Shown: piece after piece, positions 62,318 through 64,000 of the stretch | How positions within the stretch are numbered: the stretch's first letter is position 1 | How the letters are laid out: each line of letters starts with the position of its first letter | DNA from: a phage | Reading direction: 5' to 3' (one strand) | Assembly: GCA_033648345.1 (NCBI GenBank) | Contig: GCA_033648345.1_4121.1 | DNA length: 64,000 nt | The notes under the pieces: model-generated | The model's database searches: none | What the model was told of the DNA's origin: nothing | The model's input: the letters and a program-made list of their open reading frames with translations, nothing else | Made by a program: the position numbers and the translations under genes

Positions 62318-62515
62318 ATGCGTATTTTAACTAAAGAACAGCACCACGAAAGACTTATCAATAACATGGCTATGATAATGTATAAGTCCCATGACCGTGG
62401 TATTGCATATAAGCGTGAATTGGTTATGGCACTATTCATTGGAACTAACTTTCAGGAAAGGTATGTCAAGGATTGGATTTGGTATTTAATTGAAGATATA
62501 ACGAGTAAACTATGA
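62318..62515 (+). CDS. small protein, family G member 1 (65 aa)
   Basis: MRILTKEQ…IGTNFQERYV…L; head of overlapping-start array. Confidence 0.6.
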   Translation: MRILTKEQHHERLINNMAMIMYKSHDRGIAYKRELVMALFIGTNFQERYVKDWIWYLIEDITSKL

Positions 62516-62712
62516 AAATGCGTATTTTAAATAAAGAAGAATATCAATCACTGTTACGTAAAAACTACGTAAAGATTTACAACACAGACACACACGTAGA
62601 ACGAATGGAGTTATACCTTTTGATTACATTGGGAACAAACTATCAGGGTAGATGGGTGTGGCAATATATGGATACATTGAAAAATAAAATATTGTCCACG
62701 AGGAAACAATGA
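62512..62712 (+). CDS. small protein, family G member 2 (66 aa)
   Basis: ATGA overlap; …LGTNYQGRWV…. Confidence 0.6.
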   Translation: MKMRILNKEEYQSLLRKNYVKIYNTDTHVERMELYLLITLGTNYQGRWVWQYMDTLKNKILSTRKQ

Positions 62713-62918
62713 AAACTATAACACGAACCCAATCATTAGGTCTTATCTTGAAATACATGGACTTAATGTTGGATATCAGCAAAGACCTTCCTAAAACTGA
62801 AATCCAAGTTGCAAGAGCAGAGATCCGCATGTTAGCTGTACTGAACACAAACCATCAGGAAGAGTATGTTGACGATTGGATTCGATTTTTAATAGAAGAT
62901 ATTAAGAGTAAACTATGA
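62709..62918 (+). CDS. small protein, family G member 3 (69 aa)
   Basis: ATGA overlap; GAGGA SD; …LNTNHQEEYVDDWIRFLIEDIKSKL. Confidence 0.6.
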   Translation: MKTITRTQSLGLILKYMDLMLDISKDLPKTEIQVARAEIRMLAVLNTNHQEEYVDDWIRFLIEDIKSKL

Positions 62919-63130
62919 ATATCATTACAAACTCAAATCAATATACCGAACGCGTCGCTGCCAGACAACTTGAAATTCTCATAGTATATGAAGAGACTGA
63001 TGATTTGAACTTAGCATTAGTATTGGAAAATGATATACTATTGGGTGCATTCCTCGGCACAGATTATCAGGAGCACTTCTTGAATGAGTATATAATTGCA
63101 CTCCAGAAATACATTAAGAGCAAACTATGA
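62915..63130 (+). CDS. small protein, family G member 4 (71 aa)
   Basis: ATGA overlap; …LGTDYQEHFL…. Confidence 0.6.
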   Translation: MNIITNSNQYTERVAARQLEILIVYEETDDLNLALVLENDILLGAFLGTDYQEHFLNEYIIALQKYIKSKL

Positions 63131-63345
63131 AACATTTAAGTAACTCCGAGAAGAATAAAATTATCATTGCTGCAATAAACAAATATTTTACACTTCCTCA
63201 CACAGAAGGTTTATGTGTAAGGGAACACAGGATAAACACCACCGATATACGCATGATGGCTGTACTGGGGACGAACTTTCAGGAAGAGTATGTTGTTGCA
63301 CACATAGTTGCCCTCACTGATCTAATAAGGGACAAATGCAAATGA
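63127..63345 (+). CDS. small protein, family G member 5 (72 aa)
   Basis: ATGA overlap; …LGTNFQEEYV…. Confidence 0.6.
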   Translation: MKHLSNSEKNKIIIAAINKYFTLPHTEGLCVREHRINTTDIRMMAVLGTNFQEEYVVAHIVALTDLIRDKCK

Positions 63346-63560
63346 AAGACATAAACACTCAAGAATATCTTAAACGATTAGAACAAGGGAAGAACTTTAG
63401 ACTTCAAGTTTACGATGATGAATCACTAACATCCAATGAAAAGTATGTTATACTAACAGACTCAACATTAATACCATTTGTAGGAACAAACTATCAGGAG
63501 GTTATGGTAGACAACCACATCACGGCCTTAAAATGTCATGTCAGGGATTTAGGTAAATGA
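63336..63560 (+). CDS. small protein, family G member 6 (74 aa)
   Basis: Overlapping start; …VGTNYQEVMV…. Confidence 0.6.
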   Translation: MQMKDINTQEYLKRLEQGKNFRLQVYDDESLTSNEKYVILTDSTLIPFVGTNYQEVMVDNHITALKCHVRDLGK

Positions 63561-63814
63561 GACGCTTAACACAAGATGAATATGAAACTATAGTTCGTAA
63601 ACTAACCCCCGTCGCCAGTATAGTCTACGATGACCCCAGCCTTACATGGAACCAAATGCGAGCTAAAGTTAATGAGCTATGGTTGCTGTACTTTATGGGG
63701 ACTCAATATCAAGATAAGTTTTGCACAGAATATGTCGAACAATTAATGAATGTTATACAGGATAAACTAGATGATTATTGGCTCACAAAACATGAAGACT
63801 TTATCAGGAGTTGA
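63557..63814 (+). CDS. small protein, family G member 7 (85 aa) with C-terminal read-through extension
   Basis: …MGTQYQDKF…VIQDKL then 14 extra residues; the usual CTATGA stop/start junction reads CTAGATGA here. Confidence 0.55.
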   Translation: MRRLTQDEYETIVRKLTPVASIVYDDPSLTWNQMRAKVNELWLLYFMGTQYQDKFCTEYVEQLMNVIQDKLDDYWLTKHEDFIRS

Positions 63815-64000
63815 GTATCAAACTGCCCTATTCTCTTTAATCCATACCCTTAGAAAAAACAATGCCTTACATGGTGCACCTGAAGTGGATGTTATCAACG
63901 GTGAACTTTATCTTATGAAATTCATTGGAACAAACTATCAAGATCTGTTCATTCAACGATACTTGGCAGCATTAAGAAACCAAATCCAATATAAAACCCA
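63792..64000 (+). CDS. small protein, family G member 8 (partial, runs off window end)
   Basis: MKTLSGVEYQ…LMKFIGTNYQDLFIQRYL…; start ambiguous (ATG 63771 or 63792), overlaps member 7. Confidence 0.4.
   Translation, partial: MKTLSGVEYQTALFSLIHTLRKNNALHGAPEVDVINGELYLMKFIGTNYQDLFIQRYLAALRNQIQYKT

Follow-up and report, generated by a model that had tools for sequence, protein, structure and literature searches.

A tandem array of small PHROG 4148 paralogues, a putative early operon, in an Asteriusvirus-type jumbo coliphage

The DNA analysed here, called the window, is a stretch of 64,000 nucleotides (nt) of a phage (NCBI GenBank assembly GCA_033648345.1, contig GCA_033648345.1_4121.1), and the subject of this report is an array of small genes at its 3' end. 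A listing of open reading frames (ORFs) for 61800-64000 gave eight paralogous ORFs on the + strand between 62318 and 64000, seven of them complete and the eighth clipped by the window end. An initial annotation, made from the letters of the sequence, had described eight paralogous ORFs with overlapping starts that share a GTNYQ motif, and this description was borne out. The members did not fail to align, as that annotation had allowed they might; they are alignable over their full length with pairwise identities of 17-38%, and eight out of eight match PHROG 4148 (E-values of 3.5e-13 to 8.1e-21, profile positions 1 to 68-73 of 74), which is a catalogued phage protein family without an assigned function. 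Since every member matches phrog_4148 and aligns along its whole length, the similarity is well beyond chance. The count of eight holds for the window but not for the array itself, which is about 6 kb long in relatives and has 22-28 contiguous members there. The window stops inside gene 8 and the array therefore extends past eight genes, the number eight being an artefact of the window edge. The features of the locus are given below, with lengths in amino acids (aa).

62255-62283, + strand: putative promoter of the array operon, sigma-70-type TTGACA-17 nt-TATGAT, 11/12 matches to consensus
62318-62515, + strand: member 1, 65 aa, ..IGTNFQE..SKL, phrog_4148 E-value 2e-19
62512-62712, + strand: member 2, 66 aa, ..LGTNYQG.., ATGA overlap with member 1, phrog_4148 E-value 5.6e-18
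62709-62918, + strand: member 3, 69 aa, ..LNTNHQE..SKL, ATGA overlap, phrog_4148 E-value 5.4e-15 and phrog_28039 E-value 8.4e-39
62915-63130, + strand: member 4, 71 aa, ..LGTDYQE..SKL, ATGA overlap, phrog_4148 E-value 5.3e-17
63127-63345, + strand: member 5, 72 aa, ..LGTNFQE..DKCK, phrog_4148 E-value 6.8e-14, modelled as a three-helix bundle
63336-63560, + strand: member 6, 74 aa, phrog_4148 E-value 3.5e-13
63557-63814, + strand: member 7, 85 aa, made up of the family core (63557-63769), a 14-residue C-terminal tail DDYWLTKHEDFIRS (63770-63811) and the stop TGA (63812-63814)
63767-63774, + strand: member 7/8 junction, CTAGATGA, with ATGA at the canonical site but 2 nt off the member 7 frame
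63771-63814, + strand: 44 nt shared by the tail of member 7 and the 5' part of member 8, used in two reading frames
63771-64000, + strand: member 8, clipped by the window end after ..IQYKT, phrog_4148 E-value 2.5e-18

When member 6 is read from its second ATG (63342) it is 72 aa long, and it is from that start that its ATGA overlap arises. The phrog_4148 match in member 7 is confined to residues 1-71. Member 8 is 83-90 aa long in relatives, being 90 aa when it is counted from ATG 63771. Six of the seven junctions in the window are 4-nt ATGA overlaps of stop and start, and the seventh is the 44-nt overlap between members 7 and 8. Thus, the overlapping junctions of the initial annotation are real and ATGA is common to six of them, but CTATGA, which was given as the normal form, is found only at the junctions of members 1/2, 3/4 and 4/5, the other three reading CAATGA or AAATGA. 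Similarly, the motif given as (L/V)GTN[YF]Q(E/G) is present literally only in members 2, 5 and 6, and a form that covers all of them is [LIVM][GN]T[NDQ][YFH]Q[EDG].

The pattern shared along the length of the members is M-K/R-x-L-T/S-x-x-E-Y ... E-L-x-L-x-x-F-L-G-T-N-Y-Q-E-x-Y-V-x-x-Y-I-x-x-L-x-x-x-I-x-x-K-L. Within the GTNYQ motif only T and Q are invariant, while G and one L are almost invariant. Structures of members 5 and 7 were predicted with AlphaFold2, with predicted local distance difference test (pLDDT) scores of 90.0 and 95.7, respectively. The model of member 5, for which a family alignment of 40 sequences was the input, has a predicted template modelling score of 0.73, helices at residues 6-21, 31-45 and 52-71, and a beta-bridge from residue 2 to T49 of the motif. 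Because of these helix positions and this bridge, the GTNYQE motif would be the turn between helix 2 and helix 3, anchored to the N-terminus, and the high-confidence prediction for each member is a bundle of three helices, about 70 residues long. The conserved hydrophobic core comprises L4, L13, I36, L43, L47, V56, I60, L63 and I67, and E8, Y9, E40, G48, T49, N50, Q52, E53 and K70 are conserved as well. On the other hand, strong variation is seen where helix 1 ends, in the first loop and over most of the surface. The net charge ranges from -6.4 to +7.8 among paralogues, and the isoelectric point (pI) is above 7.5 in 19 of the 30 members examined and above 9 in 12 of them.

Scans of the members against Pfam, NCBIfam and PADLOC gave no matches, nor did a profile search of the PDB sequences, and fold searches found no relatives and no likeness to any characterised defence or anti-defence protein. 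We had considered a helix-turn-helix identity, which was prompted by the 'LGT..Q' string, but neither profile matches nor fold neighbours placed the members with the Cro/C1 or Xis-like proteins. This identity was dropped on the fold geometry, the lack of helix-turn-helix neighbours and the broad range of charge.

The window DNA matches 34 records at 83-94% identity, and all 34 are PBECO4/121Q-type (Asteriusvirus) jumbo phages that infect Escherichia or Salmonella. The best match is BF17 with 92.6%, and the window belongs to an Asteriusvirus-type jumbo coliphage. A profile of the eight members found 8 matches in the window and 28 in the BF17 locus. With an iterated profile the near-full members per array numbered 26 in BF17, 28 in PBECO4, 25 in SD-15_S21 and 27 in fEgEco12, and 121Q has 22 contiguous members (21 of them near-full) and two outliers. 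Flanks and gene order are shared with BF17, PBECO4, fEgEco12, E9.1, SD-15_S21 and UE-S1, with 59-100% identity for each orthologue slot. By these comparisons the segment 62318-64000 is the promoter-proximal third of an array that lies in the same place in all the PBECO4/121Q-type phages examined.

The array has the properties of a lineage-specific tandem expansion, the paralogues being contiguous and on the same strand and the matches in cultured phages being restricted to those of the Asteriusvirus type. An exhaustive HMMER search of 1.84 billion protein representatives gave 75 clusters (at 50% identity) with E <= 1e-3. In a collection of 5.8 billion proteins, two word-indexed profile searches matched exclusively proteins named as phage proteins or encoded on 'E. 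coli' contigs of about 350 kb. When two of the weakest matches were searched by tblastn against the GenBank phages, only Asteriusvirus-type phages were found. Another weak match, P0243, is on a 35.7-kb metagenomic contig of an uncultured phage (Logan SRR30815946_997, 28.6% GC) that carries at least 13 divergent family members between 1919 and 13671, scattered among other small genes and not in a uniform array; this contig has no DNA or protein match in the GenBank phages. Since divergent members are found on it, the family is narrow yet not strictly limited to cultured Asteriusvirus. Throughout the public records the genes are annotated as hypothetical proteins. Public annotation of the array is also inconsistent, with several PBECO4 slots unannotated or truncated and with an internal ATG taken as the start of member 8 (159 nt) in fEgEco12 and UE-S1.

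At the member 7/8 junction the initial annotation had read a lost stop and an extension of member 7 by 14 residues into member 8, and the letters at 63767-63774, CTAGATGA, agree with this. Compared to junctions of the form AAA-CTA-TGA, two extra bases shift the TGA out of the member 7 frame, and member 7 runs 14 codons beyond the usual ...KL end of the family to the TGA at 63812-63814. It had also been suggested that the anomaly could be a sequencing error and that it should be looked for in related genomes. That this junction is unlike the six that precede it would fit a mistake in sequencing or assembly, or a frameshift private to this genome, the true sequence being CTATGA. However, the offset is present in all seven relatives compared and is thus no anomaly. 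In the alignment it is found in 7/7 genomes, as CTAGATGA in the window, BF17, fEgEco12 and E9.1 and as CTAAATGA in PBECO4, SD-15_S21 and UE-S1, and in 121Q, where member 7 is 85 aa, the junction is GTAAATGA. The member 7 stop TGA is common to all the genomes compared except BF17, so that six independently sequenced relatives have the identical 2-nt offset and stop, while BF17 has the offset together with an additional stop loss. This loss, TGA to GGA, is synonymous in the member 8 frame and makes member 7 of BF17 102 aa long (BF17 locus 2409-2717). In the collection of 5.8 billion proteins the member-7-like clusters are 85 or 102 aa long (the latter of the BF17 type), apart from one truncated call, down to 57% core identity, and no member 7 of 71 aa, ending in ...KL, was found there. 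The clusters have two types of tail, DDYWLTKHEDFIRS and NERIVEKYENFIKH, and those of 85-aa orthologues stem from many independent assemblies, P0002 alone comprising 40 member sequences. An error or a private mutation at this junction is therefore barely credible.

Two in-frame ATGs, at 63771 and 63792, could serve as the start of member 8. ATG 63771 is invariant in 8/8 genomes and stands at the canonical ATGA position, and its Shine-Dalgarno pairing is -4.1 kcal/mol compared to -1.5 kcal/mol for ATG 63792. The latter would give a family-like N-terminus (MKTLSG..) but was rejected, as it is ATA in 121Q and in cluster P0080 (MKASSQNIKTLSS). Since ATG 63771 is invariant, lies at the canonical site and has the better Shine-Dalgarno sequence, whereas 63792 is not conserved, the conserved start of member 8 is most probably 63771 and the overlap 44 nt. 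Farther along the array, BF17 has overlaps of 22-32 nt at five other junctions, with tails that reach 5-10 residues past the family profile. Because the offset and the tail are shared by relatives and clusters, and akin overlaps occur further along the array, the 7/8 junction is an ancient and fixed 2-nt frame offset that is tolerated and is not an error. In the AlphaFold2 model of member 7 the tail prolongs helix 3 without interruption (helix 52-84). Thus, member 7 skips the TGA and gains 14 codons, by which its final helix is predicted to be longer by about four turns, with the start of member 8 unchanged.

The putative promoter at 62255-62283 sits 35 nt 5' of the ATG of member 1. BF17 and PBECO4 have the identical promoter and leader; fEgEco12, which carries TTGACT-16-TATTAT there, E9.1 and also UE-S1 have another upstream segment. 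Directly 5' of the array is a 121-aa ORF (61866-62231, + strand) that has no PHROG match and is present in BF17 and PBECO4. This ORF and the promoter segment are missing in fEgEco12, E9.1, UE-S1 and most other relatives, for which the alignment begins at query position 516. Promoters with at least 11 of the 12 consensus positions number 32 on the + strand of the window, where 2.6 +/- 1.7 are expected, and five on the - strand, and none is inside 62318-64000. It is because of this excess of near-consensus sigma-70 promoters on the + strand that we read the region as one transcribed early by the host polymerase, which is what such an excess suggests. The near-consensus promoters of the + strand cover 237-12524 and 40682-62283, and 16 of the 32 are perfect (TTGACA-16/17/18-TATAAT). 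Within 61000-64000 no match to an Rfam family was obtained.

At the internal starts of the array the duplex with the anti-Shine-Dalgarno sequence is -2.1 to -6.2 kcal/mol, compared to -1.6 +/- 2.4 kcal/mol at random positions. Termination-reinitiation at ATGA overlaps is established (PMC6728339, PMC10666635), and we propose it here because there is nearly no Shine-Dalgarno sequence at most of the internal starts. The whole array would be a single early operon that the host sigma-70 RNA polymerase transcribes from the 62255-62283 promoter, and the polycistronic early mRNA would be translated as a chain, by termination-reinitiation across the 4-nt ATGA overlaps. A translationally coupled early operon is, we infer, the most economical reading of this anatomy.

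For the window against each of six relatives, the ratio of non-synonymous to synonymous substitution rates (dN/dS), pooled by the Nei-Gojobori method, is 0.35-0.47. Ratios above 1 occur in a few pairs with small counts, namely, member 7 against BF17/E9.1 (2 synonymous and 12 non-synonymous changes) and member 2 against fEgEco12 (3 and 15). On these values the members are real coding genes under purifying but relaxed selection. When the members of four complete arrays were clustered at >= 60% identity into orthologue slots, 30 slots were obtained. Twenty of these recur, in the same order, in each of the four arrays; five slots are found in three arrays, two slots in two arrays and three slots in a single array. 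Among the genomes compared, member 6 is common to the window and fEgEco12 only, with 100% identity, and a second member-4-like gene that is in all four relatives is missing from the window. Identity to any single relative swings from 59% to 100% across slots, and this spread indicates that alleles have been replaced. In BF17 one member is split by a frameshift (6478-6691) in a slot that is intact in 121Q (6605-6817). Adjacent paralogues are about 36% identical and distant ones about 32%, and since neighbours are barely more similar than distant paralogues the duplications are ancient. Taken together, most paralogues have been kept as separate orthologues across the genus, with some gain, loss and replacement and one frameshifted copy.

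The mass-spectrometry table of the phAPEC6 virion has no product between gp347 and gp549, and a family member, P0121, is gp481c of that phage. This argues for a non-structural role. The whole explanation towards which we lean, though only slightly, is that an array of about 25 genes forms an early coupled operon with one fixed junction offset and encodes effectors that are not part of the virion. As to what these would do, our tentative proposal, which we would rate somewhat below an even chance, is that they are non-virion early proteins, a set of small modules that share a scaffold, bind proteins and serve in host takeover or counter-defence, with a separate partner for each paralogue. This proposal is made because of the early promoter, the small size, the conserved scaffold with variable surfaces and charge, the about 25 paralogues that are maintained and the turnover between strains, which in combination are most like the takeover or counter-defence gene sets known from large virulent phages. 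A more specific and rather doubtful version of it is that the phage encodes a library of about 25 diversified binders on the three-helix scaffold, each acting early in infection to counter or redirect a host factor or defence protein of its own. If that were true, the slot differences (member 6, the member 4 pair and the replaced alleles) would feed into host range, and the array would be a bacterial-virus counterpart to the multigene families of poxviruses and giant viruses. Several points weigh against these proposals. Promoter and coupling are deduced from consensus and gene anatomy, and the function from context rather than from homology. Virion mass spectrometry can miss small proteins. 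Sequence and fold searches gave no similarity to known anti-defence, takeover or other characterised proteins. Finally, most slots are stably conserved and the overall dN/dS is below 1, which is unlike a fast arms race.

Three other explanations of the array were weighed against host takeover or counter-defence. The paralogues could co-assemble into a hetero-oligomeric helical assembly or coat, with translational coupling setting fixed proportions. Co-directed pairs coupled by ATGA often encode subunits of heteromeric complexes (PMC10666635), the order of slots is mostly conserved across the genus, and a hydrophobic stripe on helix 3, V56/I60/L63/I67, is heptad-like and strongly conserved. However, this stripe can be core in the monomer models, which are closed bundles of high confidence, and a content that varies between phages (22-28 members, member 6, the extra member-4-like gene and the BF17 frameshift) is awkward for a fixed complex. 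Moreover, the proteins were not detected in virions, and we consider such an assembly unlikely. Slightly less likely in our estimate is that the array is mostly neutral ballast, tandem duplicates that gathered after capsid enlargement as in the ratchet model of Hua et al. and that have no function per copy. These authors proposed tandem duplication as a route of jumbo-genome growth and noted a large array in 121Q (PMC5646251), and the relaxed constraint (dN/dS of about 0.4 with single pairs above 1), the gains and losses, the frameshifted copy and the BF17 stop loss would all fit. On the other hand, all eight ORFs in the window and about 25 in each relative are intact, dN/dS is clearly below 1, and paralogues so ancient that they are about 32% identical have nevertheless been retained in 20 of 30 slots, in the same order, in four complete arrays. 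Headful packaging accommodates slack by terminal redundancy. Filler would thus not be required, as is also argued in PMC5646251.

The third explanation, which we regard as improbable and, if anything, a little behind ballast, is that the members are nucleoid-associated proteins or small regulators that bind DNA or RNA, that is, a lineage-specific expansion of transcription factors. They are small helical proteins of an early region, many of them basic by the pI values given above, their L-G-T turn is loosely reminiscent of a helix-turn-helix, and there is a precedent in the zinc-ribbon expansion of about 35 copies in phage G (PMC7824862). Host takeover or counter-defence by early binding modules is the reading that we retain, with the reservations stated.

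Other parts of the window contain further arrays and repeats. On the - strand, 15869-34882 holds 16 tandem paralogues of 358-449 aa that match phrog_4219 ('regulator of chromosome condensation', an RCC1-like beta-propeller), and it is these that the phAPEC6/121Q literature may mean by its 'array of closely related genes'. A second array of small genes, on the + strand at 34967-39973, has at least 22 tandem ORFs of 59-81 aa that match phrog_11711 and have a K-E-Y/F-Y motif near the N-terminus; it is broken by one ORF of 219 aa (36579-37238). At 13394-15833, also on the + strand, are seven tandem ORFs of 104-123 aa, strongly hydrophobic, that match phrog_19046 with a weak 'membrane protein' PHROG match and are probable membrane proteins. 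These two arrays were considered as remote relatives of the GTNYQ family and rejected, the hhalign probabilities being 2.8% and 0.1%, respectively. By these probabilities the three small-gene arrays of the window are independent families.

The palindromic octamer CAGTACTG occurs at 63 sites in the window (e.g. 9713, 40696, 53827 and 58437), compared to 0.97 expected and at most 5 in any of 100 shuffles, and at none within 62318-64000. T-rich sequence precedes it and A-rich sequence follows it (TTCAGTACTGAA). In four perfect sigma-70 promoters the octamer exactly occupies the spacer up to the -10 element (TTGACA-N8-CAGTACTG-TATAAT), and another three copies are in 17-nt spacers; more than 50 are elsewhere, including within genes and in gene blocks of both strands. 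The octamer could act as an operator, serve for modification or recognition, or be a signal of architecture. The second small-gene array is separated from the gene that follows by a region of about 2 kb without convincing ORFs (39973-42025), which has 11 copies of the octamer, many short direct and inverted repeats and, at about 41112-41240, an 8-nt periodic repeat with units CTGGGTGG / CTAAACGG. No tRNA and no credible Rfam match were found in it, and it might serve as an origin, in packaging or in regulation.

The SPO1 gp37-60 module and the early genes of T4 and T5 encode proteins of fewer than 100 residues from strong host-type early promoters, and these proteins are non-structural and variable among relatives. 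These modules consist mostly of unrelated genes, whereas the Asteriusvirus array has about 25 paralogues of one fold, and no likeness of the members to these host-takeover modules was found by the Pfam, NCBIfam and fold searches. The ATGA-coupled pairs of Huber et al. (2019, PMC6728339; 2023, PMC10666635) likewise have a 4-nt overlap and a weak or absent downstream Shine-Dalgarno sequence, but the array is a chain of more than 20 genes and not a pair, and several of its junctions, including 7/8, overlap by 22-44 nt, lengths for which the efficiency of coupling is less well established.

Hua et al. (2017, PMC5646251) noted tandem gene arrays in the jumbo phages G and 121Q, and the phage G zinc-ribbon genes were described as an expansion by Iyer et al. 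(2021, PMC7824862). Those arrays are likewise lineage-specific tandem expansions of one small gene and were read as genome growth driven by duplication (PMC5646251, PMC7824862). The zinc ribbon of phage G is a different protein family, the members of the window being predicted three-helix bundles without a zinc ribbon, and the 121Q array of Hua et al. may be another array than that of PHROG 4148, which has 22+2 members in 121Q with about 32% mutual identity. The phAPEC6 paper repeats the statement of Hua et al. on a tandem array. We found no description of the PHROG 4148 family in the UE-S1, Sharanji, fEgEco12 and phAPEC6 papers and, in literature searches, no Asteriusvirus transcriptome.

By itself the finding alters little, since GenBank already lists the genes as hypothetical proteins, PHROGs has them as family 4148, and the junction is a conserved quirk. 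Its value is descriptive, in that a paralogue set which ranks among the largest of a single fold in a coliphage is now described by its true size, predicted fold, operon anatomy, starts and core and variable slots. A family profile would mend the mis-called member 8 and the unannotated slots, and the array is a tractable target for screens of jumbo-phage early genes for host takeover and anti-defence. The window array is an orthologous copy of a catalogued, uncharacterised lineage-specific expansion. The PHROG 4148 arrays of PBECO4 (gp230-gp215), 121Q (gp319-gp341) and BF17 (QXN76038-QXN76062) have orthologous genes in the same order, with 60-100% identity in each slot, and nothing essential differs between the window and these and other Asteriusvirus arrays except that it has its own mix of slots, with member 6 present and the second member-4-like gene absent.

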